DNA of 64,000 nt from Massalongia carnosa. Taxonomy: Eukaryota. The stretch lies in NCBI GenBank assembly GCA_965645245.1, contig OZ287082.1, positions 1,550,001 through 1,614,000 of the forward strand. The letters run 5' to 3'. Both the position numbers and the translations under genes were made by a program. This document shows, one piece after another, positions 25,431-51,345 of this stretch (positions are counted from its first letter, which is position 1; each line of letters begins with the position of its first letter). Under the pieces are notes generated by a model. The model was not told the origin of the DNA. It searched no databases and was given only the letters and a program-made list of their open reading frames with translations.

Positions 25431-25583
25431 AAAGCTATGAAGTTTGTCTGCTCGCGAATAGAATCATCTTCTATAACTTGTAGACAATAATCACCTATAG
25501 TATCCGTGATGAATTCGATCTCATCCCTATCTTTATCTGTCTCATCTGCAGTCTGCTCCTTCTTCTTTCTTGCCGCCTCCTTC

Positions 25584-25834: not shown

Positions 25835-27054
25835 CCTTCCTCGCCTCCTCCATCTTCCAAATAGAGTTTGTCTTCTTCCATTCTGCTTCGGGATCTTCAA
25901 TGTGAGTCAGCTTATCAATCAAAATGATGACGCCTTGCCTGTCGAGCTCCTTAACTTGCTTTTGCCGAACTCTTTTACCTTTTCGCGCAACAACTCCCTT
26001 GATGTGTATAACATTACGTTCTATTCGCCATATTCTCATATAATTGTTGTGCTCCTTTCTTCTTTCCTCTCGTTCTTCTTTTTCTTGCTTTTCGGCAATA
26101 ACTCGTTCTGCGTCCTTCTTTGTGAGTCCTGACGCCTCCGAATAGGCAGATCTTATCCTCTTGCGAGAAGTTGCTTTGTGTAGCAATTCATCTTTTCTCC
26201 TTTTGCGGATAACTTTCAGTTCGAAGTCGGTGAGATTTGATTTTGCAACAATCTGCTTCGCACTATCAACAAACTGTTCAAACTCGTTTGGCCGATTATC
26301 ATCACTCCACTGCCTAACATTCTGAATTTTTTGCAACAAATCAATCAGCCCCCTTTCAACATCATCGAAGGTTTGAGGTTAAATTCGTGCGGGCAATACT
26401 GGAAGGGGGGATTCTCATTCGCGCGCTTCTGACCCGGCAGGTGGTCCCGCATCACCTGCTCACCCCGCAGCATTTGAACGGGCCTTTCAACCCCTGGGGC
26501 GGCGAATTTTTAAGCTGTTTAATGCATAAGCCCCTATTGATAGGCTATATTCCCGCCTTTCTATAAGCAGATCGAATGGTGGAGCTTGTGAAAGTGTTGT
26601 CTCGTATTTTAGTAAGGTCTTGACAAAACCGAGTCAATAAATACTCGGTGATGAACTCTGCAAGGACATCTTTATCATGCCATTGCTTATAGGGTTGAAA
26701 TACACCCACATCAAGGGGTTGCATACAATAAGTCAGATGTGGTATCAGGGGGAGAGGGCGAATGTGATTTTCATTGGCAAGCTTTATAAACTCAGGGGTG
26801 CAATGAGTCCCATGATTATCCATGAGCATCAATTTCTACTGCTTTGTAGGCCCCGAGTTTGTATTCGCAATGAAATGCTTCAAAAACTCAATAGCTATTT
26901 TATCGGTGATGAACCCACTTTCTGATACTTGGACCAGAGTCCCCGTGGGCAGCCCTTCTTGGAACCAGTTCTGCATTATTCTACGACATTGCATGATTAA
27001 AACGGGGGGGGGGGGGGGGGGTGGTTAATAACCGGCGGCGTTGATGCTTTCAAT

Positions 27055-27481
27055 TGTCACGGAATCGCTTTGCACCCTCCCGCTTGTCCTGATCGGGTTA
27101 GTATTTAACAGGACCCATTGCTGTGAAACCTCACCCATCGTGCTCAGGCGTTCTTCTGGCGCCCTCAGCGCACTATTAATCTCCTACAATCCGTATTCCA
27201 ATCTCAACGTCTCTACTATCCAGGCTTATGACTGACAGTACTTCGATAAACGCGGGATAGGTCAGAGCAATCATGTTAAGGAAATTTAGTATAGGAACAG
27301 AGATGGGGCAAGTCGAGAATAGGAGAGTTGAAAGCCATGGCTATAAAGTCTATATGGTTTCCCAGGTGTTTAGAGCTCTTCATCGGACGTCTTGTGTATT
27401 ATACTCAACTTCTAGTTTTAGCATATCTAGATATCCGTTCTGCGAGATAAAGTCTTGTATCTCTCCAGCCCTCCCCTGACA
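27055..27481. mobile_element. Solo LTR (427 bp)
   Basis: TGTCA..TGACA, TSD TCAAT/TCGAT (one transition). Confidence 0.85.
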
Positions 27482-28471
27482 TCGATTATGGTGAGAGATT
27501 TGCGATTTTCTGGACAGATTGAATAGAACTCCTTAATATCTGATGGAACTAGAATTTCATGACCCTTCATACATCCAAATCGAAATCCTGCTTCATCAAA
27601 GTTTCAGATATCTTGTGCACGAGTTATCCCCAACTCTGCAAGAACCCGCTGATATCGATCAAACCATGATCTCACATCTGACTCCTGAGCCGCAGTATAT
27701 CGAACAACTGCTAGTGGCTTGGTCTTTATCTTGTGCAGATTATCGTCTTCCACCATTGCCTAAACCACCGCGGACTTGGACCATTGAATTCGGCATCTTG
27801 AGCACGTTTCAGAGTCTTAATAACAGCGAAAACCACTTTATGAGTAGGTTGAATGCCATACGCAATCAGAGATCGAATGAATTCGTGAATGGCTCTGACC
27901 TGCTGCTCCTCCAGTATTTTGTTCTGCCTTCCAATTTTCTTCGGCGGCGTCTTTTCACGTTTCTATTGAACTGTAAAGAGTAGTCTCGGCGAGGTTGAAG
28001 ATTCGAGCTGCGCAAACGATGCTCTTCATGGGGTTTTCTAATAAAAACTGCTTAGCATTTTGCACGCACGTTGCAATAGAATCACTCGTTTTAATAAGTT
28101 TCTTATTCATGACGCTGTTGCTATTCATGATTGAGGTAGGGAGCGGTCGATGAAATAGGGAGAGAGTGATTGACGAAATAGGAGGCATGCAACTGATGCG
28201 GTCGCGATTGAATTAAGGTGAATATCCCGGTTAATCAATAAGTAGTTAGGATGTGCAGTTAATGTCTATCTATAGTATGAATAATAACAGTTAACGGTCG
28301 TAGGTTGCGGTCAAGAAGTGGTGTAAAAAGATGCAAAATAGGTTCTAAAATGGGTAAATTTGGACAAATCATGAAATTAAAACTACGTAGATCACTTGCC
28401 TACGCAGACCGCTTTCCCCGACTAGAGGTGATATACCTCATATAGAGGCAGCTAAGCGAGGCCGACGTATA

Positions 28472-28984
28472 TGCATTTATTGATGCATTCTTTACGCAAA
28501 GAAACTTTCTGTTCTTTATTTCTTTAACTTTTTCTCGTGTTCTTCAAGTGATGAAAAATCGTTTATTCGTTATTGACATGTTTATTCATCTTGTCAAATT
28601 TCAATTCAATATCGATGCTTATTACGAACCTGATTTCTTTCTTGTTACTCAATTAAATTATTATTAAGTTAGCTTGATACTTAATTAATTTCAGATTTCA
28701 GATTTCTTCGTCAGCTAATCCCGAAACATTTTGATCTTTTCGTCTCGTTATTGTACAGAGAAGTGCTTTTAAGAAAAGCGTACTTTTCTTGTTATTCTTG
28801 AAATTTCAGATTCCTCGAAAGAGTTTCTAATAAAAGAAACTTTTTCTTCTTCGATTATTATTTTCTCGAAATTTAATGATCATTCGAAAAAGTCTTTATC
28901 AAGAAATACTGCTTCTTTTCTAAATCATATTTTTTCTGAATATGATAATTAATCTAAAGATCGTCAAATCTATCATGAAAATAA
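28472..28984 (+). pseudogene. RIP-mutated Gypsy relic part 3 (protease)
   Basis: AFIDAFFTQRN..IHLVKFQFNIDAYYEPDFFLVTQLNYY..LIFSSRYCTEKC aligns by eye to AFIDSSFARRH..THLAKLRLQIATHSEPANLLVTNLGHY..LSFTSPYCLQHC. Confidence 0.7.
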
Positions 28985-29781
28985 TGTTACAGCGCCGCCG
29001 TATAAGGCTGATTATTACTAAGCCTGATAACTCAGCGGTGCTAAAAACGGTCATACTATAGTCGGGTCAAGCGATGACTGATGGGACGGGTGTAAGGGGT
29101 CAAGTCTAACAGCGTGACTACTATATGGATTCGTGATAAATGTACGAATAGAGAGTGGTAAATCAATAAATTAATCAGTGACCCCTCGAAAGAAGTTGGC
29201 GATAGGGTCTTTATCCTATAGCCCCACTTTTTAGGGTCACGAGTCCGTTGATTTACTTAAAGTGATTATGATTGGTATAATAAAAAGAAGAATACGAACA
29301 CGAGCCGTGTCCTAGTCGGAGATTCGGAGATCGGTTATAACTACCGATTCGCTTATGTCAGGACGTGCGTGACCTGACATCACCCTCCTTCTAGGGCTCA
29401 TGTCCTCAGGAGCCCGATGTGGAAGTTCTGTATAACTTAATGTCGCATGTGGTTCCGGGTACTGCCCGAGTACTAGGAATAGCCTCTTCAGACACACGTT
29501 ATCCGTGTTCAGTCTAGAAGTCATGCTTGCTGTCATGAGTCCAAGTCTCAACTCTTTCTTATTTGTTTGTTGACGTCTCATCAGTCTTAACTCTTTGTTT
29601 TTGTTGAGCGTACCTTGCTGGCGGTGCCAACTTTATTGGGCTTAGTCTCTTCTTTCTTTTCATATCAACAGGTAGGGTTCGTTGTTTCTTTCTCTTTAAA
29701 CATCACCTCACCCAACTCCGTACTCCATATTTTCATCAATCTTTCATCACTTTACCATCAACAACTCTATCATCAACTCTC

Positions 29782-30560
29782 ATGTCGAGGTCTAAAAAAC
29801 CTCGGCGTGTTGTTCCGGTTTCTGCCCGTTTATCGCGGGCCAAGCGGTCCCACCCTGCCGTTTCCCCCCTTTCCTTGCCCCCGTCGCCCTACCACTCCTG
29901 GTCCGTAGGACCATGTTTTCCTAGGTGTCATAGTTTCCCCCGCCGCGCCACCCGTTTCCGCCTTGGTTCGTGGCGGTTCCCCTCTGCCTCTCTTTTTTCC
30001 GCTCCTCCACCCGCCCATTTGGGTGGGGCCTACCCCGGAGGTAAGCGTTTGCCTCCGGTGTGCTAAGCAGACCCTTGGGGGCTACCCTCTCGCCTGTGAG
30101 TGGTCCGAGGAGTCGGGGAAGTGTGGGGAGTGTCGCCGGAAGAAGGCTAAATGTTTTCCGGTAGGTGGAGCTCTGTTATGGAAATTTTTGTCTAATTTAG
30201 GTAGGTTCCAGTCAGTTTCCGCTGCTCGGTGGCTCATCTCTTGGGGGAGGTCGACCAGTTCATGGCTGGTACGGGGTCCATGGACCAAGCCGGGCGGTTT
30301 ATCCGTCTCTGGCCCGTTTGGCCATTTGGGAATGTCATCGGGCCCAGGACCTCCGGAAGAGTAGTCTGGGGTCTCTGGACGCCCTAGCAAATATTGAACG
30401 CCTAGTCTTCGAGGGTAATGCCCTTGGGCTTTTCCAGGTATGAGGTCTAGTGTCGGATTACTTTAATCGTTTTTTGACACTTTTAGGCCGGATTAGATGT
30501 TGGACCCCCTCCAGGGGAGGATATTTTGGTGGATCGAAAAGGGGGTGAAGGGGTAGGATA
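29782..30560 (+). pseudogene. Antisense accessory gene with a Zn2Cys6-like motif inside Gypsy B
   Basis: CLRC-x9-C-x8-CGEC-x6-C at ~30050-30154, followed by a GTAGGT..CTAAT..TAG intron (30161-30204) giving CFP-VPVSFR. Basic/Pro-rich N-terminus; frameshifted. Confidence 0.6.
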
Positions 30561-30624
30561 AGGTGGTTGTGGTGTGGTAGATAGCAGTCTGATCCTGTAT
30601 TCATCCGACTCCAATAGAAATGGT

Positions 30625-31298
30625 TCATGCCTTCGATTTTCTTTTCTTCCTCGTAGGAGTTCTGGACGGTTTTCCCGGATATTGATTATGATAGGAATTA
30701 ATTAATTCCTGTGATCCTTCCATGTCTTCTACGGATAACCATTGATTATCCGTATCAGAATATCCCATCCATTTCACCAGATATTGGAGTTTTCCATAGT
30801 GAATTCTACTATCCAGCACCTGTTCTACCTCCTATTGTTCTTCCCCTTCTACTTCTATGGGTAGAGGTGGTTCAGATATTTTGTTCGGGTCATATCTATA
30901 AGGTTCCAATAGGGAAACATGGAACACATTATGAATACCCTTCAATAACGGAGAAAGTTTGGAGTTTGTAGGCCTGTTTTCCTATAGGAGAGATAATTTC
31001 GTATGGCCCGTAATATTTGTAGTCCAGTTTTTTGGACGGACGAGTGGATTTAATATTTTTTGCGTTCAGGAGGACTTTATCACCCACATTATACGTCTTG
31101 GGAATATATTTCTGATCATTAATATTTAGCCTGGGTACTTGAAGCTGTTTGTAATAATTTCTCCAGGTGTTTTCTTTTGTCCATGATGTCAGTGGCCAGG
31201 ACGCGTGCAGCAGGAACCTCGGACCCCTTTTCAGTCAGAATTTCGTCTTCCCATTTGGGCGCTTCTCCAAATATAGCTTCGAAGGGGGTCATTTTTAT
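30625..31298 (-). pseudogene. pol: Gypsy B integrase C-terminus and chromodomain
   Basis: GPY region, HNVFHVSLLEP and EVEQVLDSRIHYGKLQYLVKWMGY. Confidence 0.9.
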
Positions 31299-31511
31299 TG
31301 TCAGGGTCCTAGCCTGACATAGGGCTTAGGAGGTTTAATGAACATGCTTACCGCCAGTTATGAGGGAAAAGGGGATCACGGGAGCACGTGCACTAGCGCG
31401 ACCCACGGTGATAATATCTTCGTCAAGGGCGCACAGTAATTTCACTTTTCCTCTTGTAGATAAATTTTGGTTTAGTAGCGGTTGATTAGAATCGACGACA
31501 GCTTCTTTACA
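31299..31511. mobile_element. Solo LTR (213 bp)
   Basis: TG..CA with a perfect TTTAT TSD; removing it restores HSVIKMTPFEA. Confidence 0.9.
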
Positions 31512-31788
31512 TTTATGACACTATGTAAGCTATTATTATAAGAGAATTCTGCCAAGGGTAACCAGTAAGTCCAGTCATCCTGTTGATAATTGACGTAGCA
31601 TAGTAGATATTGTTCCAGTGTCTGATTTTGTCTCTCGGTTTGACCATCCGTTTGTGGATGAAAGGCTGTACTGTAACTGAGTCGAATTCTCAAATGATAC
31701 AAGTACTTTGAGGTGAATAAACTACCGCTATATGAGACAATAGACACTGGCATACCGAATTTGGTAAATATTTCTTCCACTAGGAAAT

Positions 31789-34467
31789 TGTCAGGGGACT
31801 GGATTGGATGGTCAAGCTTTCTAATTGACTGAGTCTATAGAAGATTTCCCGAGGAAATGCCGCACTTTACAATTCGGCATTAGAATATTGTTTTCGTCGT
31901 TAATCAACAACTACAACGATTAATGAATGTGTATTATATATAGTATAAATAGAAAGTATATACACGATATCTGACCCTAAAAACCTTACATAGTAAAACG
32001 CCCTGGGCGCTGGACCAATCTTCCAGTCGAGGTAGTTAAAACCACCTCCTCTACCTCTCTAGCGATAATAACACGAGTAGGCGGCTTTACCTTCTTCTTT
32101 CGAGTCTTTTGAACTTTATTAGACCCTGTATACTGCTTCTGCTGCCCGAGCTGTCCCTTAGGATATCTGTTTGCTGCTTTACGTAACTCCTTCTGAGCCT
32201 GCTTCTCAGCGGCCTTTGCTACCTTTGCTTCTGCAGTCAATCGCCGCTTCTCTAGAGCGATTGCTACCTTTTCTAGCTTCTTCTCTTCTTTCTGTAACCT
32301 TTTAGTAGTAGCTTGTCGTCGCTTCTCGCTAATATCTAGCTGGCGTTGTGCTTCTACTTCCTCTTTTGCTGCTTGAAATTCCCTGGCAGCCTGTACTCGC
32401 TTAGGACTAAAGAATTGAGGGCCTGAGTCCTCTTCCCCAACTAAATTAAGCCGTTTACCTCTCTTCCTCCACTTCTATTCGTTCTGAAGGGTATTGCAGA
32501 GCCCTTTGATCACGTGTTTATTGATAGAGTCCTGGGCAGCAAGGCGTTCGTTAGCCCGGAAGATCTTTCCTAGTAATAACTTCGTAGGCGCAATATCGTA
32601 CGCTCGCTGCGTACGGCGAATAGCACGGCTTGTCATTGGTGTTTTTGGCGACTGAGAAGGAGCCTCGATTATCTGTGGTGTGATAACATTTAGTATAAGG
32701 CTCGGATTGTAAGGCCAAATAATGATTTTTGCGAAGGCAGAAGCAATTTTTTCCTCCGAAAATGCCTGCTGCCATGCAGGGAAGAAAACGCTCCAAAAGG
32801 CTCTTTTTGACATGTTTATCATGCCTAGACTATCGAACATTAGTCTATTCCGCCCATTGGTATAAAACGTTGCTAACGACGCGAATAGAGAAACGTCTAG
32901 AGGCTGTAAACGATGCGTAGAGTGCGAAGGTAGAATCAGGAGAAGAATACGTAACTTATCGCATTTATCGATAAACTTAAGATTCACGTGGCTAGAATGA
33001 CCGTCTACTATCAGTAAACGTCTTCTATTTCTAGCCTTTTGCTTCGTATAACGCTGAAAAACCTGCTCTAGCCAATTCAGGCCAAGGATATCACAACTTC
33101 ATCCTTTCGCCGATACTGCAAAGAACGCCTCGTCATTAGGATTTACATCCTCAACCCATGTATCCTGGAGAGTATGCCAGAGTCGCCTTTATAGATCAAG
33201 GCAGGAGGTAAAGCGGTTCCGTCGGTCCCGATACAAGCAAGGAGGCTGATAAACTCCCTATTCCCGTCCTGGCTTGCATGTGTGATCCGCCCTGATTCGA
33301 GGGTCTCTAGCGACATGATACGTTGCGTGGCTCTTACTTGGCCAATCACAAAGCCCTTTTCGTCCCAATTGTAAAGGTTTTCCCCCGTGATATTGTATTT
33401 TTCGACACCGGCGACTAGCTAATAGAAACATTAGTTATTTTCGATCATAATTAATATTCAACAAATAGGAATGGGTAGTTAACACGCTACCAAATCGTAG
33501 AATTGCTTAAATAAAGGCGGATACTCAGATTTTATACGCTGGCTATCCATATTTCGAAGATAAAGACTTTTAAGCCTATCCTTGTATCGGCGGACAAAAT
33601 CCCCTGTCCAGTTCTTCCTTACAGGCCCTCCTATCACCTCCTCCGCTAGGTTTCGTACAATTCTGGCGATTGGGGGCAGTCCACGATCGACAAGGCGATT
33701 GATTTGCTGAATTATGGCCTCTTCCTGGGCCAAGGTAAGTCGTTGCTTGTATTTGGACGCGGCTGCCTTTTGGGACACCGTTTGGCCTTTCCAGCGCCTC
33801 GGGAGGGTACTTTCCACTAGGCTAAACCTTTTATCTGTACCCCTGAGGTTAGGCTGATCTTGCTGATTCAGATCGGCAATTGCGAGCTCGATACGAGCGT
33901 TGAGGGTGGATTTATTCATGTTTGAAAGTAATGGTTGGAAAGTGAGAAGATGCGGCATTTCGTCGGATGCGGCATTCCTCGGGAAATCTTCTAGCTACAG
34001 CTAGGCTAGATTGGCTATTCAAGACGTCGGACAAGGAGCCAGAACTTTCGAGACTCGACCCCTTCTTTTATATCTGTTCCTCACCTCCTTATCCCTTTGT
34101 TTCCTTAATCTTCGATGTCTCCTATTCATCTCCTTTTCCCAAGTTAATACGTAGACACCTAAAGGGGACCGGGTAATTATGGTTTCGAAGATCGGAGGCG
34201 GAGCCGTACTCGATCTAAACCGCATCGAGAAAGGTTGGAACAGCGCGCACTGACCAATGAACCTGTGGTAGGTCTAATGAACCTGTGGTAGGTCTAATGA
34301 ACCTGTGGTAGGTCTAATGAACCTGCGGTAGGTCCAATAAACCCGCGGTAGGTCCAATGAACCTGCGGTAGCTCCAATGAACCTGCGGTACGGTAGGGAG
34401 GGACAGGATAGATGGGGCAACTACGGATAAGGCCGAGATCCTTTTGGTTCGAAGCCGTTTCATGACA
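31789..34467. mobile_element. Solo LTR (~525 bp) interrupted by a pogo element
   Basis: TGTCA..TGACA, TSD GAAAT/GACAT; removing it restores MADV-LVEEIF. Contains a 20-bp tandem repeat at 34255-34390. Confidence 0.8.
31840..33991 (-). mobile_element. Fot1/pogo-like DNA transposon (decayed)
   Basis: TIR GAAGATTTCCCGAGGAA(A)TGCCGCA, TA TSD; HTH_psq/CENP-B-like N-terminus, YNWDEKGF, VDGHSSH and HRLQPLDV. Confidence 0.92.
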
Positions 34468-34627
34468 GACATCAGCCATGATTTCAGCATTCCAGTCCTT
34501 TCGTGCGGGAATATATCGAGAACATTTGATATACCGATCTACCATGACAAGAATCGCATCATAGGCCACGGTTCGGCGGAGACTCGGGGGCAGATCCGTT
34601 ATGAAGTCCATCGTCTATTTTTGTCTA

Positions 34628-36530
34628 ATCGTGCCACGCCTCATCCCCTAGCGGGGGTGCTGGCTACCCAAATAACGTACACAACCCATATGACGTTTTT
34701 TTCGATTTTTAACTTCAACTATTCAACGATCACCATTCAACAACACAATGCCTACCAATTATGAAGAATTGGAGCATCATATTCAGGATGCCCTGGATGC
34801 TATTGGCGATGGCGAATACCGCTTTGCAACCGATGCTGCCGTCGCATTCAACGTCAAAGTCTGAACTCTTCGGAGACGCATTGCTGGAACCCATACTTCC
34901 TTCTTTGAACGTGAGCCTCATGGTCATGCTCTAACTGACGATTAAAGAGGTGCAATAGTCATATATTTGACAAGACTGGATAAACTATCGATTTCTGCGC
35001 CCATCAGGCATCTGCGGGGTACAGCAAATTACCTTCTTGCTCAAGCGAATCCTGTCGATCCTACCCGAGTCGGACAGCACTGGCCAGCACGATTTCTAGC
35101 TCAGCACCCTCAATTTCATAGGAGGAAGCAGACACCTCTTGCAGTCGAAAGGAAGACTTCCCTACAAACGATGTTGCAAAGGCTTACTTCCATGAATTTC
35201 GTCAAATTTGTCACGAGAAGGGGATCGGACCCGAAGATATTTGGAACATAGACGAGTCAGGCTTTCGGATAGGCGTTGGCAGGGGTTATACTGTTATCAC
35301 ATTGCTTGCCAAAGGTCCTGTTCATGTTACTGATCCGGGTGTACGTGATCTGATCAGTGACGTTGAAAGTATTAGTGGTGGAGGAGCGACGATCCCTCCG
35401 ATGCCCATCGTGCCCGGAGTTTATATTCTAAATAAATGGGTGCAAGAAAACGACCTCGACGACGATGTACTGCTTGCTACTACTTCCTCTGGGTATTCCG
35501 ATGATGTTAAGGCTTATGAGTGGATACAGCACTTTGAAAAACATAGTCGGAAGACCCAGGTAGGTGGCTGGAGACTCCTCATCATGGACAATTATGGATC
35601 TCATCTTACATACGAATTTATTGAGTACTGCAATCACAAGAATATCATCTTGTTCGGTCTTCCCCCGCATTCTACATATGTTACTCAGCCATTGGATGTG
35701 GGAATATTTCAGCCCATGAAGCATTATTATTCCGTAATTGACGATGCTGTTCGACTCGGGAGCGACAATTTCAACAAACATGACTTTTTTGCCGCTTTCA
35801 CAGACATGTGAGCAAAGGCCTTTACTAGATCAAATATTCTATCGGCCTTTGAACACACTGGTCTAATTCCTTACTCACCTAAGATAGTGCTAGATAAAAT
35901 AATTGGCTGGCAACCCCCTTCAAAGGAGCCAACTCCGGACCCTTTCGGCTCGTCACCATCCTTTCAAGGCACTCCACATGGTCCTAAGCAGTTGTTTAGA
36001 CGCGGAAGGGAGTTACAAAGAGGTCTAGAAGACTTTTATCTGCCCGAGGATCGTCATAAAAAGATGGATGAATATTTAAAGGGGTCGCTCGAAGCTGCGA
36101 ATTCGCTAGCGTTGGCGGAGTGAGACATTGCAGCCACTCAAAATCATCACAAACAACGCTCAAAAAGAGAAGCACGAGATGGATCGCTTGCTCAAAAGGG
36201 CGGTGTTATAACTGTGGGCGACACATGAGGAAAAAGTAAGGCCTGGAGGATAGAGAAAGCGGCTAAACATAATAGAGCGAAGGAGCGGCAAGAGAGGATC
36301 GATGCAAATGCACGAAATAAGTGGAATAAACAGTGCGCTAAAGGCTTCAAATTGATAGGTTAGAAAGCTGATCAGTGGATCAACACCTGGATAGAGTTAT
36401 TGGATATAGAATATGAGGATAGGGCTACCTTTGAGGAGGTAATAGAACTTTTTAATTAAAAACGTCATATAGGTGGTGTACGTCATTTGGGTGGCCAGCA
36501 CCCCCGCTAGGGGATGAGGTGTGGCACGAT
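34628..36530 (+). mobile_element. Fot1/pogo-like DNA transposon (decayed)
   Basis: ~70-bp TIR ATCGTGCCAC(G/A)CCTCATCCCCTAGCGGGGGTGCTGG, TA flanks; WNIDESGF, IMDNYGSH and TQPLDVGIF. Confidence 0.92.
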
Positions 36531-36532
36531 TA

Positions 36533-37867
36533 CAGTACTAGGTCAAAAGTTTCCGACAGCCCCACCATCAACTTTTTACCCCCCACTGCTTTGAATTATC
36601 AACAGTCACGTTGTTATTTTGATGTCTTGAAACTTCCTACGATAATTACATACATTATAGCAAGCACATTGGGCTGAGAAATATATTTTTAATATTTCGT
36701 ATAGCATTCTTTTGACTGGATGCAAGCTTCAATCCTCCTTTTCATGCTGTCTACTAAACTCTTCAGCATTTCCTCATTTATCAAGGCCCATGCTTCTTCC
36801 AAAGCTTTCCAAAGTACCTCGCGGACCCTATCATCACTACCAGTCACCGAGTCGATATCCGGATTGACCTGATAGACGAGCTTTTTGAGCACGTACTAAA
36901 CGTACTCGATGGGATTCAAATCAGGAGAATAAGGGGGCCAATCGATGACTGTTATACCGTTTTCATCGAACCATTTCTTCACCTTTTTGGCAGTGTAAAT
37001 GGGGGCATTATCCTGCATGAAAATGAGACCTGGTTCCCAAATTCCAAGCAGATTATCGTTCAATAATTCCAAATATGAATTCGCGGAGTACCCAATCTTC
37101 TTTGCCTCGAAATCACGGGCCAATTTGTAGATATCCGACCTTCCCCCCCCCCAAAAAGCCCCCCATACCATGACCTTGACCTCTTTACCTTTTCCGTACG
37201 GTTGTATCATAGATTTTTTCCATTTTTCGTCCGGAAATCTGAACACCCATTGACGCTATTTGCCCGACCCCTTTTCCACCGAGCACTCGTCTGACCATAT
37301 TATTTTTGACCACTGCTCAAAAGTCCACTCACGCCGAAGCAAGCACCAGTCCAGTCTCTTCTTTGCCACCTCGGGCGCCAATAAAGGCCGCTTTTAGCCA
37401 GCCAGTTTGTTAGACCATAGTCTTTGAGCGTCCGATAGAGAGTGGATCGACTACATTGCACCCCAACCTCCGTACGCAGCTGCGCGTAGGTGATGCGTGG
37501 ATTGATTCGTGCAAGTTTGATGATACATCTTCGGTCGCGGTCCGAGAATATTCCAGGCCGACCCGATCGCGATTTGGACTTTCCGTTGTTGCGTTCTGAG
37601 TGCTTTTGAAGAGTGTAAATGAGGGTGGTTCGAGGCACATTTAATGTCTTTGCAATTTCGGCCGATGCATGCCCTAAAGCCTGGGCTCCAATAATCATAC
37701 CTCTTTGATATTGATTCAATTCGATATTACGAAGCTAATTACCAGAGATTTAAGTCAACGGAGTGCGTGGCATGGTGAAATGATGAGGTTAAAGTTGATG
37801 GATTGGTAGGTTAAAACGCGAAATCACGAAAATCGCGGGTAGTGTCGGAAACTTTTGACACGGGACG
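36533..37867 (-). mobile_element. Tc1/impala-like DNA transposon related to 20166-21503
   Basis: TIR CAGTACTAGGTCAAAAGTTTCCGACA, TA flanks; WSDECSV, MQDNAP and WPPYSPDLNPIE; frameshifts. Confidence 0.93.
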
Positions 37868-39185
37868 TAGGCCCTTTTGGTACGGGTAGGGATTCTAATA
37901 ATCCGAAGGGCTTATGTCTGCATCGGGAAATCGGGAGATGACTAATAGATCTTGATGATTAAATATTCGACTCCGTGGTTTCTTTAGTCTTTATTCGTCA
38001 ACCTTTAGTCAGTTGCCTTTATCTGTTGTACGTCTTTTCGTCATATTAGTCAGTGCAACCTGCATCTCAACAAATAATCGTCGCTCTGTCTTTACTTCTC
38101 GTCTCGATAAGCTTTATTATTCTCTTTACCTCGACCTTTTAATAATTCAGTCGTATATTATCCACACTATCCTATCTTTACGTCCTCTTTATCCGTTGCA
38201 GAGTAATTTTAGTTGTACAGCTGCTCTCTTTACATGTCGCATCGTCATACATTGACTTCGTTACAGCTTTTGTATCTTGCGTATAAAATATCTTTATAAT
38301 GCGCAACCCACCTTGCATGTCTCATCGAAGATTAAGTTACGCACATTTAGTTCTCGAAGATCAACAGAGTTCTAATTGCTTTCTCTATATTTGTATATTG
38401 TATCAATGTTCAAGTGTTTTGTTAGCTATCGTGAGGTCGTGTTATACTGACGGGTCGAGGGAACTGTGTGTTAGGAAGCCTGTTAGCTGGCAATCAGTTT
38501 CCTTACTGTAGTGCGATGACGCTCAATTCGAAGCGATTAAGCTTGAGTTATGGTTAGGGATTAAGAACAGCGGTCTTTTGGGGCAAAACTGGCAAACGAC
38601 GGGCTCTCGAACCTCGCTGGACGGGATGTCATGTTGCATTTGTGGTCCGTCACATCCTGTACTACTCTAATTATCGATTCAATGAAATAATTTAACCTAC
38701 TGCATAGATGAAACATTAAGTGAATACCGACGTTCAAAATAACAGTCGCAGCGCTCACGATAACTACTGGAAGACTACGAACTATCTACATATGACTCGG
38801 GATCACGGGCATTGGAGACTTTATCGTTTGAGACTTTTGAGGTTTGACATACTGAACCTTTTACAGAGATGATCTACGGTAAGCTAACATCAACTAATCC
38901 TAATCTAACAGCTAATAGGATTTTCTTGATCTAACAGGGTTTTCTTGATCTAACAGGGGCTGTTTTAATCTAACAGGAACCGTTAGCATATCATAACAAA
39001 GTCAACGATCCTAACACGCTAGATTTGGTTGCAATGGCAAACTTGTTCATTTTACTTTTCGCGTCGAGCTCTTCTACTTTGCTCGTTTCCCAAACCCACA
39101 GGTATTGCATATTCCTTGTTGCTTCTTTTTTTCAACAATGTCAACATCAAAGACAACCACTATCAACAACCCACAAAGAATTACA

Positions 39186-40840
39186 ATGGTACGAACCTCC
39201 ACAGGATGTATAGAAACCAACGCGTATCGGCTGACTTTGCTTTTCCTTCGAGAACTCTCAGGATTTTGATGATTCGCCTTCCGAGGAAGACTTGCCTGCA
39301 TTGGCACAACTAAAACGCTCTCGTGCACAATTTGAGGGAAATAAGACTTACAGAGACAACAAACGCTCACATCGCCTGCCTTGTGTGGACGAGTTGGCTG
39401 AATCTAACTTAGTACTGGCAACGACTCAAGCGATGCGAGTTTCCAGCCAAGTGTAAGCAGTACAGTCATGAATGCATGTATCGGGTTCTGACCTAGAACA
39501 GAAAACGCCGATAACTAAGTATGTGGCGAGGACATTACCGGCCGGCGCAGGCCGCGGTATTCAATACAGCCCAAGTTCTCCATCTCGAAGGAGCTCCTTA
39601 CGAAGAGAAACGTTCCCTTCGTCTTGATCGAGAAACCCTTCCCGCGCGCTGGATAATATCTTGTCACCTTCACAAATACGCACTCGTCGGGTTTGCCTGC
39701 GACACTGTCCTCGCAAACTCTCGAGATCTCAAAGGTCCTCCCGATCAAGTCTACTTTCGGCACAAGGGCTGGCATAACGGAGGACGAGACAGTCTCGAAA
39801 TCAAAAAAATATATGCTTATCGTTTACTCTGGGGTGACATATCAAGGCGAACCAAGTTCAACTCTAGCCCTGCTCATCAACCAATACTATGTGCCATGAT
39901 TCCTTTTTTTCAACGCTCTGATAAAGTCCGGACACATGGTTGAATTATGTTCGCCTTGGGCGAACACACAGAAGCCTCGATTGAGCAAATTAATGAGTCG
40001 TACTTGGCGGGACCTTGCGAAGCGTCTCGGTGACCTTCCTTGCAACCGGAACGTCGATGTAGCAGAACTTCCCACCGCCAAAGAGGCTCGCAAGGTAGGA
40101 GAGGTCTTACAACGGATTTGTACATATAAAAACTAATCTGAGACTAGATTTATGATTCGACAACGGACTTTCGCTCTCAAATGTTGAGCAAAGTGAGCTT
40201 GCTTGTGGCTAACGAATACCGTTCTCAGTTCAGAGCGACTGTCGAATATTCGGGTCCACTTTGCTAGACGATCTTAATTTTCTGTGCGAAGATTTATCAA
40301 CGGTTAGTATGTCCTAGTTATCTTGATATAGAGTTTAACTAACTCGTGAGTAGGCTCCGAAAAAGCAGTTTATCGCGCCTATCTTGATAAAGGCAATAAC
40401 TCTGATATTCTTCAATAACGACAATGACTGCAGTTATGGACGCAATACCGACACTGCGTATTTGTTCAATCCACTTCGAGGAGAAGTGATCGTATTGATA
40501 GCAACTCTAACTCAACATGCTATTGGAGAGTATGAATACGGGCAAAAAAAGGTACAGGCTTTTGATAGGTCACAGCGAGAGAGTAATTTTGTACCAATAT
40601 AATCTTTGCTGAGTTGAGGCATTAATACTGAAAACAATCTATACTCGAATGACGAACACCTGGAATAAACAGTCCTCAGAGAGAAAGATGTTGTTACAAA
40701 GAATCATTCATCGGCGGGTTATGCGTCAGACTGGACAAAGAGATGGGGACTTTTCGGCGGTCACAAAAGCTGTGCACAATCCATTTGCCACTTCTATTGA
40801 CGATCTTGTAGATCTTGATGCAGGAGATGAAATGACAAAG
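39186..40840 (+). pseudogene. Multi-intron DUF6532-like gene, copy 2 (start uncertain)
   Basis: Predicted introns near 39453, 40094, 40304 and 40583. Spliced product ..FRSQMLSKVSLLVANEY..LLDDLNFLCEDL..FIAPILIKAITLIFF..SYG..LFNPLRGEVIVLIATLTQHAIGEYEYG..F. Family assignment is from recalled motif pattern only. Confidence 0.55.
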
Positions 40841-41175
40841 TCGGTCAGGTCGACAGCGCGGCTTTCTTCCTTGACATCTTCGTGTAGAACTTCGATCGTT
40901 CGTTGCGAGGAGGTGGATTCGGGTTTTTCGGTATGTCTTGATTGATATTATGCTTTGGAATTATCAGTAACAACAATAGAAGGAAACCTCTTCACCTAGA
41001 CCGTCGCAGTTGACGAGCCACGAGGTATGCAATCTTATTAACCGCGTTCTAACGTGCTATTAACATCTCTACTAGAATTCTTCGCAACGTGGGCCCTCAC
41101 AATTAAAGCACAGCGCATCAAGTTCATCCTTCGTAAGAATTCGCTTTGTTTGTAGAATATCTGTCAGTCTAACAG

Positions 41176-41565
41176 TTGCGTTGGAAACAGATTAACGGCA
41201 AGATATCGTCAACTCCAACTCCACTCGTGCAAGACGCAATCGTGACGACAGATTCGGGTCAAGAATTTGCGGTAGATTACGATTTACGCATGGGGAAAGA
41301 CTGGCGGATTCGGATGAGGTATGATGCAACGTGGAAGGAGTGGCAGACTGCTGTGGGAATGAAAGATGGAGAGTCGTTCTGGTATACTGTACCAACATTT
41401 CCCGAGGCCGTATTGAGGTTTGAGGAGGAATATAGTTCGTTTTTGGATCGGGTGGAACAGGTGCATAGAGTAATGATACATACTGGGCGCAATCTCAAGC
41501 AGATGAAGACTCTGCGAGGGAGGACGACAATATGGGAGAACTCACATAACATTTATTTTACCTAA
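41176..41565 (+). CDS. Orphan ORF/last exon, second cargo gene of the TIR element
   Basis: 129 open codons after a CTAACAG acceptor; conserved with 19444-19833. Confidence 0.5.
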   Translation: MRWKQINGKISSTPTPLVQDAIVTTDSGQEFAVDYDLRMGKDWRIRMRYDATWKEWQTAVGMKDGESFWYTVPTFPEAVLRFEEEYSSFLDRVEQVHRVMIHTGRNLKQMKTLRGRTTIWENSHNIYFT

Positions 41566-41950
41566 ATCTTGATAATATAATTGACTGGTCTGTCTTTATT
41601 GTCGTATCTTGCAGCATCAAGCGCTCGAAAAGGAAACATAAGCAGTGTATTTTGAAGATTTGTTACAATCGTTACTAAAACAACAAGTTAATTAATGAAA
41701 TTATTGGATTCAAATGCTTATAATGACACAAAAGAGTCAATATAACAATTATCATCATTGGACAAAGAAAGGTAAAGGTAATCATTAGTCAAAGAGCAAC
41801 TGTTTACACGTCAAATGTTTGACTATTCGTCAAGCGCCTATGTCAAACGTGGGCGCAATCGGCATTATCTAGAACATTTCGGCTAATTGACTAATGTAGC
41901 CTATTAGTCGACCATTTGACCAATTCGCGAGTCCTCCCGATTTCCCGATG

Positions 41951-43047
41951 TGGACGATTTGACTTGATGACAACGAGTACACGTTTCTACATAATGCTTG
42001 ATGTCCTTGACCATTTCGGGCCAATAATATTTCCTCTGGATCAATTCCAACGTTCTGGAATAACCAAAGTGGCCCGCATTGGGATCATTATGATTCTGCC
42101 GCAAATGTTCAGCACGTAAATTCCTTCAGTGGTTTGTTGGGCCTGCGCAGTACTCCGACAATTTTTGTCGACAACGGGTGGACTCATCAAATTGCGATTT
42201 GCCCCGTCTGATAATTCATTTATAGTAGATTCCCAATCCATAGCATCGTCAGCTACTTGAGATTCATCATTCACAAGGGCCATTGTCCAATTTGACGTAA
42301 TGAGCTCCTCTATCCCACCCCGATTCCCCTCCGAGACCCCCCCGAATCTTCCAGGAATTATAGCTCCGGCTTGATGAGACAAGTCGTGCCTTTCTTTTCA
42401 TATAATCCGGGCGTCTAGAGGGTCCATCAGCTGGATTATGACGACCTGGACGATATTCAATGACGAGATCGAGACTAGAAAGTCTTTCCCACCATCTCGC
42501 CTCTCGTCTAGATAAAATTTTTGTGGTAAGAAAGGTACGAAGATTACAATGATCGGTTATTACCCGAATCGAATGTATCGCCCACTCAAGATAATGTCTC
42601 CACTCCTTACATGCTTCAACAATGGCCAACATTTCTGTTTCGCCAATACCGTAGTTTAATTTGGCTGCATGCATTTTTCTTGACCAAAAAACAATAGGAT
42701 GCCACTGTCCCGTCGATTCAACCAATTGTGATAAAATAGCTGAAATTGCGACTCCGGACGCGTCCGTCTCTAATTGTATTTTCCGCTTAGGGTCAAAATG
42801 CAATATCATAGGAGCGGTGTTAAAAGCATGCTTGAGACGACGAAATGATTCTCTTGCTTCTTCGGTGAATGAGAATTTAATATCGAACTTTCCTTTCTTT
42901 TCCCCTTTTAGTAGCGTCGTTAAGGCGGCCACAATGCGCGAGAATTTCGTTGATAAATCGCCTATAGAAATTTGCAAACCCGAGAAATACTTGAACATCT
43001 CGATAATTTTTGGCTTCAGGCCAATTTATAATCGTCGCCACCTGAGA
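41951..43047 (-). pseudogene. pol: Gypsy B RT-thumb, RNase H and integrase zinc finger
   Basis: VFLGFANFYRRF, LETDASG, EMLAIV, TDHCNL and HNDPNAGH..CTRC. Confidence 0.92.
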
Positions 43048-44077
43048 TGTAATACGGATGGCGCTAGAAGAATACGTGATCGCCTACGGCGGTTGCAGGA
43101 TTAACTAGCATGAGCCAGGCCGTAGTACTTAGTCGCATAGCCGTCGAGGCTGACACGACGCCACCTTGCCACACAACTCCGAATTAGTTGTTACTACGTT
43201 CTAGACTGCTTACAGATTAAACACCTGTCGAGGCCGTGGTGGTAGATTGCCATGGAGTAAGGCGAACTCCTGTGGAGAAGCCGTGAACTTTATATGGAAT
43301 CTACTGGCCTACTCGGAGCTACTCGATCTCTTGATGGATCAAGAGTTGTAGCAGGAGGCACGGCTAGCTGGACGCAGCTTGAGCTCGGCCTCCCCGGTGT
43401 AAACTTCAGCTTCCACCTTTATTGCTACGTTGTTAGTGATGTCGGCTGAATGACCCTACATGACCTTGTGGTCTAGACCTTGTGTCTAGAGGCAGGTCCG
43501 CAGTGTAGATAGAGATTCAGTCGGAGGTAACCTTCCATCGCTACGTTGGTAGTGGTGACGGCGAAATGAAGCTACATAGCCTCGGCGTCTAAACTTTATG
43601 TTTAGAGGCGGGCTAGCAATGTAGTGAGGGATCTAGCCGGAGGTAGAAGTGTTCTACCTTGCAAGGGAAGGTCTAGAAGGCTGCTCGAGGCTGACTAGAT
43701 GATCCAGCGAACGCCGAGTTCGTAGATGGATCCTGAGGGATGGTTAGATGTAAGACGATAAGGTCAGAAGTGGGTTGCAAGGCTCCAAGGTTCCAAGGCT
43801 CCCAAGGCTATATATAGGCTTGGGGTGAGTAGGATAAATACCAGAACGAATCCTGTAGTATTCGTTAGCAATTAGTCTTTTTTCTATGAACAAACTACGT
43901 TTGGGTCTCGGACGAGATCTCTTGCTCTAAGCACTTCCACATTCATTAGTTCTTTGGATCACATATACTCTCGGAGACTAGCACGTAGTAGCTATCTTCC
44001 ACCTCTCACGCTGAGCATTTCCCCTTTCGAGATCAGTGTCGCTCGTGATTAGCTTACTGGTTTCGTAGCCTATTACA
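43048..44077. mobile_element. Long solo LTR or LTR-derived insertion (1030 bp)
   Basis: TGTAATA..TATTACA, TSD TGAGA/CGAGA; removing it restores MDSSR-VATIINWP. Confidence 0.8.
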
Positions 44078-45516
44078 CGAGACGAGTCCATAGATTTACC
44101 ATTCCGATTTACAATAAATCCCAGAAATTCAATTTCAGTCTGGTCAAAGAGGCACTTGGATAATTTCACCTGTAGACTGAATTTCCGTAATTTCTCCAGG
44201 AATAGTCGGACATGAAATGTATGATCTTTTATCGATTTGGAGAATATCAAAATGTCGTCCAAGTACACCACTATAAAGTCGTCTAAACATTCCCGTAGGG
44301 CTTCGTTTATGTAGGCCTAGAATGACGCAGGGGCGTTGACTAGTCCGAAAGGCATAACCCGGTATTCAAATTGACCGTACCTGCATCGAAAAGCCGTTTT
44401 CCATTCGTCACCGGCCCGTACCCGGATTTTATGATATGCATCCCGGATATCGAGTATAGTGAAGTAGACGGCGCCAACAAGAACATTTAATAGGTTCATG
44501 ATCAAGGGTAAACGATATCGATTTTTTATGGTAATAGCGTTCAGTCCCCGATAATCAACACATAGTCTCACACCACCATCCTTTTTCTTGACGAATAAAA
44601 TAGGAGCACCGGTCGATGAAGTGCTAGGAACTATAAATCCTTTGGCCAAATATTCGTCGAGGTACTCCCGTAATATTTGTAACTCGGTCAAGGATAAATT
44701 GTATATTGGACCGAATGGAGGCTGTTTTCCTTCCGTATCGATAGCATGATCCTGAGGTCCATGTTCAGGCAACTTCTGTGCATTATCTTTCGAAAAGACG
44801 TCATGGAAATCTGAATATTTGGAAGGGATTTCATTTGTAACCTCCGTCACCGAACCGACTACGGTTCCTGCCCGATCGAGCTTCTCGATATCTAAAAGGA
44901 ATGCCTGAAATCTATCTTTTTCACAAATGTCCCAAATTTTGTCCCTGCTCACCATCGCTACGTCCGCTTGACTACTGGTATTTTTACTTCGGGGGGGGGT
45001 AACCCCCCCGTCTACAGGCCTTTCAGTCTCGAGAGGTAAAATCTCATGCAGACAAGCCCCATCGTCGCCACTTTTGGTCCGACGAACATGGAAAAATTTG
45101 CGCTCATGCCAGCGGATAACCGGGTCCACCCAATTTAACCAGGGTAGGCCTAGTATCATATCCACCCCGAACATGTCAGCACACACGAACTTATGTTCCG
45201 TTCGATCCTCAATACCCCTACTATCAACAACCCCAACTAGTAGGGAGTGATTTCGATAGGTACGCAGAGGTGTTCCATCCAGATTCTTTAAGTCGGACGG
45301 CAGTGGCGAGTCGGGGGTGAATCGGATGCCGAGTTCTTTGACCTTGAGTTGTGACACCAAATTCCACGTCGAACCGCAGTCAATCATGGCCCGGATTCGT
45401 AGTATGACTTGTCCTAGATATAAAGTTATCATAGTAAACAAGTGATTTATTTTTTCACCTCTCTTTTGACGAGCCAACACAATCGAGACAACATCGATTG
45501 ACTCTAGGCTTTTCCC
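44078..45516 (-). pseudogene. pol: Gypsy B protease and RT
   Basis: MIDCGST, LCVDYRGLN, MPFGLVNAP and YLDD; stop at 44317. Confidence 0.93.
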
Positions 45517-46596
45517 GTCTTCCTTGTTGGGGCTCGACAGTCAGATTTTTTGACCCTTCTTACTACAATTCCAACAAGTGATTTTTGGAGAGTCGGTGGT
45601 GTCTTCTCGGGGTCGTTTACGACTCGGGGAGGTAACGGCTGCTTGAGCGGGACTAGCCTTGGAAGTTTCGCTCGTCTTTGAACTCGAGGCCTTGTTGTAG
45701 GTCACGGTTAGTTGGTGACTCGGGGCCCTCTGCGGTCTTTCTTCGTTTGTAGATCGATGGAGACGAGTGGCGTTCCGAACGAAATCGGGTTTAGGTTCCA
45801 CTCTTTCTGCTACTCGGGCCGCTTCAATTAATGCAAGTCGTGTTGTGCCCTGAGAATTAGCTCGAATAATAGCTCTCTGTAGATAATCATGAAGAGAATG
45901 TAGAAGATTACTATGTCTTTGTGATTCGGAAGGTATTTCTGGAAGTTGATCTTCCAGTGTGTCGAGACAAGAAACTAACTCCGACACTGTTTGTCCTGGT
46001 CGTTGTTTTAATTTCTTCAATTGTCCTTCGAGATCCAATAGACGAAGATGTTTTGGTTTCAGCTTTTCCTGGAGAAAGTCAACAAAATATTTCCAGGTAA
46101 GAGAAGATTCATCAAGTGTGGCTTCTCTCTATGCCAGTAATCTGCTGGAGTTCCTCCAATATAATTCTCCCCATACAAGACCTTTGTTGTGTTCTTTCAT
46201 AGGTAATGGGTTTTTGATTGAAGGTACGAAGACATTCTCTGACGAATTGTTCGTAGTCCTTCTGATTAGTTCCTGTATAGGTCTTTGGGTCAGCAGTCTT
46301 GAACGATTTTTCAAGACTCAATGGGTCGATTTCCTTCGGACGAATAGTCAACGTCGTCGGGAGGGGTTCGGCGGGGAATCCGGCGTCGCTGTCTGCTCTG
46401 GCTTTTTCTAGACTAGTAGCCAGCTGGGCGCGTTGTCTTTGGGCGTTTATCTCGTCCAATTCACGTTGCATATCGTCCATGGAGGACAGAGGCGGGTTAG
46501 TCGTCCCGGAGTCGGGCGTGTTTCCACTGTGTCCGACTCGTTGTTTCCAGAGGAATTACCTTTGACCACAGCTGAAGTCGCACGTCGGGGTGCCAT
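45505..46596 (-). pseudogene. gag: Gypsy B gag (frameshifted)
   Basis: ATG 14 nt after the 5' LTR, LKQRPGQTVSE capsid motif and CWNCSKKG knuckle remnant. Confidence 0.8.
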
Positions 46597-46923
46597 AGTA
46601 TCGTCGGGCTGTTACTAGGATATAAGACTGATCAAAATCTAAGGGGTCAAGTCTAACAGCGTGACTACTATATGGATTCGTGATGAATATACGAATAGAG
46701 TGGTAAATCAATAAATTGATCAGTGACCCCTCGAAAGAAGTGGGCGACCAGGTCTTTATGCTATAGCCCCACTTCTTCGGGTCACGAGTCCGTTGATTTA
46801 ATTACAGTGATTATGATTGGTACAATGAAAAGAAGAATACGAACACGAGCCATGTCCTAGTCGGAGATCGGAGCTCGGTTATAACTACCGATTCGCTTAT
46901 GTCAGGACGTGCGTGACCTGACA

Positions 46924-50345: not shown

Positions 50346-51345
50346 ATGGATGCCCATGATGGTATTCTAACAGTTCTTACCATCTAACACTTACCATCTA
50401 ACAGTTCTTATCATTAATAACTAGTTGAATGTTAGATGTTAGTCCTTACCATCTAACAAGTGCATCATCTAAAAATCTCCCAAATCCACCAGTTTTCTCT
50501 GTATATGAATCAATTAAACTGCTGTGACGTTTAATCCAGGCCTTTAGAATAGTGAATGAAGTCTCGTCTCTATTGGATTAAAATCGGGTGAATACGGAGG
50601 CAAATGAACCAGCAAAACATTTGCATCCTGACACATGATCCTCAATTCCTCACTCCAATGTTTAGAGGCATTATCCTTAATCAAAACCAAACGAGAACCA
50701 TTACCTCCAGCGCAGTATGCGAGCCTGACGAATTCATTCAAAATATCTGATGTTATAGAGCCATGATGCACCTCCCAAGCTATGAAACCGTCGATGATGA
50801 ACGCTGGTAATATACTCCATCTCTTAGAACGTTTGAGCGCTTGAATCATAGTCGGTTGATTCCTGGTGCGGCCCATCCATATCGACGATCACCTAAAGTA
50901 ATAACAATTAGCAAAGAAACTGAAGTTCTTCAAATAGTACTGACCAGTACACTCGCATGCAGCGCTTTCGTCCAGAAATATCAACTGATCAGCCCTTCAT
51001 CCTCTCAGTCTAATCATCCACTCATCACGCAAAGATAGTTGCGTTATTGTGCTATACGAATGGCCATCTTTCGATTCCAGGCCATCTGCTTCAGAGTTCG
51101 AGAAACCGTAGACTCGCTCACCAAGACGTCGAATTCATCATACAAAAATCCGCACATCTCGTCCAAATAAGAGATAGGTCTCTGATCCAGATACACGAGT
51201 AGTTGATCGATTTGTTGTTGATTCAGTTTCTTGCGCCGGCCAGCAGCAAGCTGAGGTTTTGCAACCTCATTGAACCGTTCTCAATTACGTCTCATCTTAC
51301 GTAGTTGTCTGATGCTGACACCAGTAGCAGTTATGATCGTGATAT
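50346..51345 (-). mobile_element. Tc1/IS630-like (DDE_3) transposon remnant
   Basis: YLDEMCGFLYDEFDV, FLDESA, KDNASKH and LPPYSPDFNPIE; ACCATCTAACA repeats near the end; 5' end missing. Confidence 0.8.

Follow-up and report, generated by a model that had tools for sequence, protein, structure and literature searches.

The window, i.e., the whole stretch of 64,000 nucleotides of Massalongia carnosa DNA analyzed here (contig OZ287082.1, positions 1,550,001 to 1,614,000), holds two copies of an element bounded by short terminal inverted repeats (TIRs). The uninterrupted one, copy 2, spans 4030 bp on the plus strand (37921-41950) and is closed by a perfect 17-bp TIR: the left repeat CATCGGGAAATCGGGAG lies at 37921-37937 (plus strand) and contains an internal direct doublet of ATCGGGA, its exact inverted counterpart lies at 41934-41950 (minus strand), and the termini read CATCG...CGATG. 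When the whole window was scanned for this TIR with up to two mismatches, four sites were found, at 1645 (plus, one mismatch), 21554 (minus, one mismatch), 37921 (plus, none) and 41934 (minus, none), against 0.03 expected in shuffled sequence; none of 100 shuffles reached four, which bears out the 4030-bp unit with a perfect 17-bp TIR described in an earlier note made from the sequence alone. The hexamer TTAGTC/GACTAA occurs at seven sites of the element, all of them within 170 bp of an end, and not one of 2000 shuffles reached seven terminal sites. Four fall in a 5' subterminal cluster (37940-38051; element positions 20, 64, 85, and 126) and three in a 3' subterminal cluster (41785-41909; element positions 3865, 3969, and 3984).

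Copy 1 (1645-21570, plus strand) has been broken up by four nested insertions (one Gypsy, one Helitron-like and one Tc1/mariner-like element, together with a TIR element of 382 bp), and about 5.0 kb of it is element-derived. It is 87-93% identical to copy 2 and matches element positions 1-447, 918-1561, 1555-2408, 2408-3254, 3251-3965, and 3964-4030. The two copies differ in a variable segment, present in copy 2 in a short form of 470 bp (38368-38837, plus strand) and in copy 1 in a long form of 1383 bp (2093-3475, plus strand), which is unrelated to the short form and holds a repeat of about 172 bp at 2327-2498. A contig of sequencing run X7 carries 1372 other letters in place of the short form, and the depth of run X2 falls across this segment of copy 2; the two 5' forms may represent two subfamilies, both found in other organisms. 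The element family was present in all four sequencing runs examined, with 2038 contigs in X2. A TIR scan of metagenome contigs returned 120 loci, none of which resembled the element beyond the 17-mer, and these were regarded as chance matches. Repeat-induced point mutation was considered as a source of the divergence between the copies and set aside, as it left only a weak signal (139 transitions vs. 102 transversions, with CpA accounting for 22 of the 44 C>T changes).

Both insertion sites could be read to the base. Copy 2 lies in a Gypsy integrase encoded on the minus strand, which it splits at KSS|RHKP (flanks ...CHQVKSS | RHKPFGLLESLPVPKGP), with TG on its left (37919-37920) and TG on its right (41951-41952), and these flanks align without gaps to CSRSKASRHPKYGVLRPLPIP, from an intact Gypsy element in the same window, only after one TG is removed. 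Contigs of X2 and X3, two other organisms, join 37918 to 41951 and skip 4032 letters, with two letters fitting either side; this joint, found in two of the four sequencing runs examined, corresponds to a copy of this Gypsy integrase site that the element does not occupy (other contig joints, with short sides of 21-26 letters, were disregarded). Copy 1 lies in a Gypsy gag gene on the plus strand, split at AKI|TRR just ahead of the zinc knuckle, and is flanked by CA (1643-1644) and TA (21571-21572). Since these two flanks are mismatched, one transition must be assumed, and TA is taken as CA after a C-to-T change. Once 2 bp are taken out, the flanking sequence translates as SAKI|TRRITKDLC*YCEKSEYF and can be aligned gap-free with PAEKSRRMNEGLCMYCGGSGHF, the part of the intact Gypsy gag that holds the CCHC knuckle. 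Weak tblastn matches around copy 1 are colinear (gag 242-293 at 1306-1461, gag 358-375 at 21572-21625, and pol 1-55 at 21703-21852), and pol 67-169 comes next at 28461-28769.

Taken alone, copy 2 would also fit an asymmetric element without target site duplication (TSD), reading CATC...GATGTG. Restoring the Gypsy frames fixes the length of the TSD at 2 bp in both copies, and the empty-site joint gives the same length for copy 2; at either resolvable insertion, exactly 2 bp of target were duplicated. A third insertion is visible in an X7 contig with a different left flank (...CCCGCCA followed by CATCGGG), which brings the number of distinct places of insertion to at least three. The two base-resolved sites of the earlier note, with TG/TG and CA/TA, and its 2-bp TSD were thus both reproduced, while its CA/TG target preference was observed at three sites, one of them single-sided, and is a hint rather than an established result. 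The region is dense in repeats and each copy sits within a Gypsy element, as would be the case if no transposon existed and the copies had arisen through duplication of a segment or through recombination of one Gypsy element with another. We give this explanation practically no weight, as one copy is flanked by an integrase on the minus strand and the other by a gag on the plus strand, a separate 2-bp duplication marks either site, similarity ends exactly at the TIRs, and unoccupied Gypsy sites and the third insertion flank exist. Real transposition into independent targets, as the earlier note had proposed, is the reading retained here.

The only recognizable coding content of the element is one frameshifted gene of the DUF6532 family on the plus strand. 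In copy 2 its homology-supported part covers 39824-41565, the gene may start upstream of 39824, and Pfam PF20149 (DUF6532) is matched at 40354-40599 (E = 3.7e-8; 33.9 bits vs. the gathering threshold of 24 bits). In copy 1 the plus-strand remnant is found in two parts, at 10237-10617 (residues 179-282 of the fungal protein P0016) and at 18214-18752, the latter recovered by tblastn and by a PF20149 match (E = 2.3e-4) whose 21.5 bits are under the cut-off. The interior gene is colinear with P0016, a protein of 572 aa, and tblastn of P0016 and P0004 remained colinear over four frame changes; what had been described as orphan genes is therefore a single decayed gene with a PF20149 match and a colinear fungal relative. 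The nearest full-length protein homologue comes from a genome bin labelled lichen fungus, PF20149 is carried by 13 of the 15 representative-search matches scanned, and in an atlas search the nearest clusters were Basidiomycota DUF6532 at 0.86, under the 0.9 line and to be read as a lead only. The two copies of the gene differ by 24 synonymous vs. 54 non-synonymous changes, distributed as 30, 18, and 30 over codon positions 1, 2, and 3, and both are probably in neutral decay now. A protein search for longer relatives of the 130-aa frame at 41173-41562 gave no match, word-indexed searches with P0016 and alignment A1 returned P0016 alone, and a PDB sequence search with A1 gave no matches. The AlphaFold model of P0016 is poor (mean pLDDT 49, pTM 0.34); its DUF6532 region (residues 155-395) is predicted to be all-helical, and a fold search of the model against 48,161 chains had a best Z of 5.7 over a 67-residue helical stretch, with no meaningful match.

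A Pfam scan of 50 stop-to-stop frames from both copies detected DUF6532 alone and no transposase. Plavaka or EnSpm domains were likewise absent from all 59 window frames of at least 120 aa and from the scanned frames of 75-119 aa (66 of 142 plus those inside both copies; the remaining ones overlap elements already identified). The element encodes no transposase and is therefore non-autonomous, as the earlier note had held, and a missing transposase is expected inside a non-autonomous copy; with no transposase seen, the superfamily call rests on the short signals of termini, TSD length and architecture. That the element is instead self-sufficient, the DUF6532 protein being itself a new kind of transposase, appears very improbable. 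DUF6532 is a domain of unknown function and the sole conserved coding content, and X7 contigs retain the same layout over this stretch, but both copies here are frameshifted, the model, though poor (mean pLDDT 49), has only helices at residues 155-395 and not the mixed alpha/beta RNase H-like DDE fold, and the autonomous Plavaka elements described in PMC8290104 measure 11-13 kb.

The termini lead to Plavaka, which is placed with EnSpm/CACTA, Mirage, Chapaev and Transib in the CMCT clade; the CMC/CACTA-group affinity proposed in the earlier note, which also named Plavaka among its suggested checks, is supported. PlavakaB elements have 5'-CATCA..TGATG-3' termini and TSDs of 2 or 3 bp (PMC12730594, section 3.2.2). 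Among 28 PlavakaB consensus entries from Data S1 of that paper, 26 start with CATCA, several of these with CATCAGGAAA, and one starts with CATCGGGG; a further family in its Table S1 starts with CATCTGGAAATGGGA, and CATCG and CATCT variants occur among the published Plavaka families (PMC12730594). In Marasmius oreades, 20 of the 23 MarorPlavaka rows start with CATCA and three with CACCA, the TSD is given as plain "2 bp" in 18, as "2 bp?" in one and not at all in four, TIRs measure 10-66 bp, and 14 rows are marked non-autonomous (PMC8290104, Table S3). Compared by eye, the element start CATCGGGAAA shares nine of ten bases with MarorPlavaka-1 (CATCAGGAAA), and the terminus shares four of five bases with the PlavakaB motif and its first seven with PlavakaB-1_AuCo. 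The element thus combines CATC termini, in the CATCG...CGATG variant, with a 2-bp TSD (TG/TG and CA/TA) and a 17-bp TIR within the published range, and on these sequence features it is likely to belong to the Plavaka lineage, as a non-autonomous DNA transposon that moves by cut and paste, its termini fitting the PlavakaB type best. The fifth terminal base, G where the consensus has A, and the imperfect TSD of copy 1 (CA/TA) count against this assignment. The earlier note had left the element unclassified, in a poorly described family, whereas CATC termini with a 2-bp TSD are the stated hallmark of Plavaka, and specifically of PlavakaB (PMC8290104, PMC12730594).

Two other assignments were rejected: CACTA/EnSpm proper wants CAC(TA)..GTG termini and a 3-bp TSD (PMC12730594, section 3.1.5), and here there are CATC and 2 bp; Tc1/mariner-pogo wants a TA duplication, which the true Tc1-like elements of the window show, and here there are TG and CA. 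More broadly, the element could be a non-autonomous member of another group with 2-bp TSDs (ISL2EU/PHIS relatives, Mirage or a Tc1/mariner-pogo derivative), moved by the transposase of that group. Harbinger relatives make TSDs of 0, 2 or 3 bp and CMCT lineages of 2-5 bp (PMC12730594, section 3.1.4), and Tc1/mariner and pogo elements are plentiful in the window; nonetheless the duplications are not TA, the Tc1-like elements of the window start with CAGT, and the CATC start matches Plavaka in three papers (PMC12730594, PMC12581995, PMC8290104), and we consider such an origin unlikely. The comparison of termini covered Plavaka, CACTA/EnSpm and Tc1/mariner, and ISL2EU/PHIS were weighed by their possible 2-bp TSD only.

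With the Plavaka assignment preferred, the element can be set beside described families. Like PlavakaB of Agaricomycotina (Kojima 2025, Biology 14:1741, PMC12730594), it starts with CATC, ends with GATG, has a 2-bp TSD and short TIRs followed by short subterminal repeats, and PlavakaB also includes non-autonomous families such as PlavakaB-N1_FiHe. It differs in the fifth base, in cargo (TET/JBP in PlavakaB, a DUF6532 gene here) and in host, which is probably no agaricomycete because the nearest homologue derives from a lichen-fungus bin. MarorPlavaka (Hiltunen et al. 2021, PMC8290104) shares the 2-bp TSD and starts with CATCAG; most of its families are non-autonomous derivatives, beside the long autonomous elements, and its non-autonomous families span 0.3-2.3 kb, whereas the present element spans 4.0-5.0 kb and has retained a gene. 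Plavaka of Tuberaceae (truffles, Ascomycota) has ascomycete hosts, 2-bp TSDs and a TIR starting with CAT as here, its motif being CATAC and not CATCG (PMC12581995). The DUF6532 gene between ends of Plavaka type is the one new lead here; the element type itself is already described.

En/Spm (CACTA) elements combine short TIRs and subterminal repeats with a second, non-transposase gene, and their internally deleted non-autonomous derivatives are mobilized in trans. The likeness to our element lies in the TIR/subterminal layout and in the extra gene, whereas CACTA termini are missing and the TSD is of 2 and not 3 bp; no similarity was detected between DUF6532 and En/Spm TnpA. By the mechanism we propose, a Plavaka DDE transposase (Pfam PF18759), encoded by a longer, autonomous relative at another place in the genome, would bind the CATC termini and probably also the subterminal TTAGTC repeats, excise the element and reinsert it at a 2-bp staggered cut, while the DUF6532 gene would be cargo or an accessory gene retained from an autonomous ancestor. 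By analogy, DUF6532 proteins might be a conserved, TnpA-like accessory gene product of Plavaka-type transposons, perhaps binding subterminal TTAGTC, in a family that would extend Plavaka to lichen-associated fungi, a tentative proposal that we hold to be rather doubtful.

The main value of the finding concerns annotation, since pipelines based on open reading frames overlook elements of this type, and automated annotation may wrongly assign Plavaka to LTR/Pao (PMC12581995). Two insertion sites of a Plavaka-type element are resolved to the base in the window, and they lie outside the group of mushroom genomes that served to define the type. If DUF6532 genes were generally transposon-borne, fungal counts of this domain (as in PMC8955403) would reflect transposon load and not host biology. 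An accessory role, if true, would give this widespread fungal domain its first biological context, and would explain the multiple copies of DUF6532 in genomes that share Plavaka and KDZ domains.

The element is a genuine transposon with clear-cut boundaries, and the earlier note's observation of it was borne out in every detail checked. Its terminal inverted repeat (TIR) is the 17-mer CATCGGGAAATCGGGAG, a doublet of ATCGGGA, which at up to two mismatches occurs at four sites in the window (0.03 expected from shuffles) forming two inverted pairs: that at 37921/41934 is perfect and bounds the uninterrupted copy 2 (37921-41950, 4030 bp), and that at 1645/21554, with one mismatch each, bounds copy 1 (1645-21570), which aligns to copy 2 in six colinear pieces of 87-93% identity. 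TTAGTC or its complement was found at seven sites in the element, each no more than 170 bp from an end, the 3.7-kb interior having none; a mean of 2.5 sites was seen per shuffled sequence, and none of 2000 shuffles placed seven in the terminal zones, a descriptive figure, the motif having been picked after inspection. Short TIRs with subterminal repeats are the layout of EnSpm-like transposons, which the element resembles in both respects.

Four younger insertions break copy 1 into its pieces: a Gypsy element (4148-9767; 233-bp LTRs 100% identical, TSD TGTAT, gag and pol frames open), a Helitron-like element (10641-18210) whose minus strand carries fragments of a PIF1 helicase, a 382-bp TIR element (19056-19437) with short inverted ends (..ACGGTTCAACC..), and a Tc1/mariner-like element (20166-21503) with a TA duplication. 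The Gypsy/Ty3 element, with a gag of 410 aa and a chromodomain-bearing pol of 1317 aa, looks intact and probably entered copy 1 very recently. The Helitron-like insertion has no target duplication and contains tandem arrays (~14500-15830) and a direct repeat (13885-14474 and 15980-16576); a further Helitron (Helitron_like_N, DUF6570) occupies 59608-62500, and Copia-type fragments (RVT_2, Pol_BBD) are found at ~55.1-59.3 kb, within 55122-62500. The Tc1/mariner-like family, with CAGT... TIRs, TA duplication and fragments of HTH_Tnp_Tc3_2 and DDE_3, recurs at ~36679-37870 and 50547-51280; besides the member within copy 1, one sits 50 bp away from copy 2, in the Gypsy integrase that hosts both. 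Between the two copies one internal segment is wholly unlike, measuring 470 bp in copy 2 (38368-38837) and 1383 bp in copy 1 (2093-3475). A repeat of ~172 bp occurs three times at ~90% identity (555-727, 1151-1322 and 2327-2498), one of them inverted, in copy 1's long variable segment, and may be a MITE.

The two copies are independent insertions, each resolved against a Gypsy reading frame. Copy 2 has split the integrase of a decayed minus-strand Gypsy, and its flanks translate as ...CTRCHQVKSS and RHKPFGLLESLPVPKGP; removal of one of the two TG leaves a single frame, gap-free against CSRSKASRHPKYGVLRPLPIP of the window's intact Gypsy. This host (29093-46923, ~17.8 kb; LTRs 29093-29379 and 46640-46923, 93% identical) also carries the Tc1-like element and pogo-type DDE_1 fragments (~32-36 kb). 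The earlier note was also right in placing copy 1 in a Gypsy frame: it interrupts gag in a second decayed Gypsy, this one on the plus strand, where a permissive tblastn search gave weak matches colinear with the intact Gypsy, namely gag 242-293 at 1306-1461 (E 0.004), gag 358-375 at 21572-21625 (E 0.011), pol 1-55 at 21703-21852 (E 6e-4) and, beyond a MULE insertion, pol 67-169 at 28461-28769 (E 2e-13). With 2 bp dropped the junction reads SAKI|TRRITKDLC*YCEKSEYF, and 10 of 22 residues, aligned by eye without a gap, are identical to the intact gag there (PAEKSRRMNEGLCMYCGGSGHF, the CCHC knuckle region). CA flanks this insertion on the left and TA on the right, a mismatch for which one C-to-T change is assumed. 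The MULE-type element splitting this host (21890-28465; FAR1 and MULE domains) has ~240-bp inverted ends, 85% identical, and its minus-strand frame 25734-26378 is related to a frame at 96-650.

Sequencing runs of other organisms were compared with the element, at least part of which is present in eight of the ten runs listed; all four of those examined in detail contain it. In two of these organisms (runs X2 and X3) one contig each joins 37918 to 41951, skipping 4032 bases with two letters fitting either side; this joint is the unoccupied Gypsy integrase site and independently gives the 2-bp duplication. In a fourth organism (X7), a contig has the element start after a different flank, ...CCCGCCA, and there 1372 other letters replace 38375-38837, in agreement with the variable segment's long form. 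The left flanks at the three known insertions end in TG, CA and CA, the third site being seen on one side only; as TG and CA are mutually complementary, these three cases are suggestive of a CA/TG target preference. The family is abundant in X2, where 2038 contigs align to the element, and the much lower depth on the short-form variable segment than on the rest of the element indicates that the short form is the rarer subfamily. One-base indels of copy 2 at 39688, 39795, 40218, 39405 and 39134 are shared neither by copy 1 nor by most of the other runs' contigs, and are decay private to copy 2.

Across both copies, a Pfam scan (E up to 1) of fifty stop-to-stop frames of 60 aa or longer gave no transposase domain; the sole real match was DUF6532 (PF20149), at 40354-40599 in copy 2 (E 3.7e-8; 33.9 bits, cut-off 24) and at 18214-18435 in copy 1 (E 2.3e-4). 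Searched exhaustively with HMMER, the 82-aa piece matched 26 proteins (E up to 0.001), and PF20149 was carried by 13 of the 15 scanned against Pfam, the remaining two being repeat proteins that look like chance matches. The single long, full-length match among the 13 is P0016 (572 aa), labelled a hypothetical protein from a genome bin named Squamulea sp. Together with a second protein, P0004, it aligns colinearly to the plus strand across frame changes (P0016 residues 138-253 at 39824-40219, 287-354 at 40360-40566 and 518-564 at 41347-41487; P0004 residues 101-171 at 40640-40870), and copy 1 holds the corresponding pieces. The "orphan genes" of the earlier note are thus fragments of one decayed DUF6532 gene of ~570 codons. 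Between-copy differences in its frames look neutral (24 synonymous, 54 non-synonymous; 30, 18 and 30 at codon positions 1, 2 and 3). P0016 was modelled poorly by AlphaFold (mean pLDDT 49), the DUF6532 domain being predicted as helices only, and a fold search with the model gave no informative match. Within the literature searched, no published link between DUF6532 and transposons was found; the one paper found to mention the domain lists it, alongside KDZ, Plavaka and CxC2, as enriched in some Ganoderma genomes (PMC8955403).

Plavaka elements, grouped with EnSpm, Mirage, Chapaev and Transib in the CMCT clade, include PlavakaA, described with 2-bp TSDs and TGT..ACA termini, and PlavakaB, characterised by 5'-CATCA..TGATG-3' termini and TSDs of 2 or 3 bp, for which 26 of the 28 consensus entries shown from Data S1 start with CATCA (several with CATCAGGAAA) and one with CATCGGGG; Table S1 has one family beginning CATCTGGAAATGGGA, and a non-autonomous PlavakaB family is listed (PMC12730594). 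Supplementary Table S3 of Hiltunen et al. (2021) gives 23 Plavaka families in Marasmius oreades, starting with CATCA (20) or CACCA (3), with TIRs of 10-66 bp and a TSD entered as "2 bp" in 18, "2 bp?" in one and not given in four; 14 are non-autonomous (0.3-2.3 kb), one probably so, and four autonomous (11-13 kb) (PMC8290104). Truffle Plavaka reportedly duplicate 2 bp of target and have CATAC as their TIR motif (PMC12581995), so ascomycete hosts are known. The element agrees with Plavaka in terminal motif, TSD and TIR length, and on these features is probably of Plavaka type. CACTA proper, with CAC termini and a 3-bp TSD, was rejected, as was Tc1/mariner on its TA. The designation "unclassified" falls, and the element is most likely a further member of an already described kind of transposon.

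Among the window frames scanned, which comprised all 59 of at least 120 aa and, from the 142 of 75-119 aa, 66 plus those inside both element copies (the rest overlap elements already identified), none carried a Plavaka/EnSpm-type transposase domain. A Plavaka DDE transposase would mobilise the element in trans, recognising its CATC termini and probably the TTAGTC repeats too. The element may have arisen when a longer autonomous element with a DUF6532 gene lost internal sequence, and the variable segment may mark a site of sequence loss or replacement; the DUF6532 protein would either serve Plavaka elements as an accessory factor or be captured cargo.
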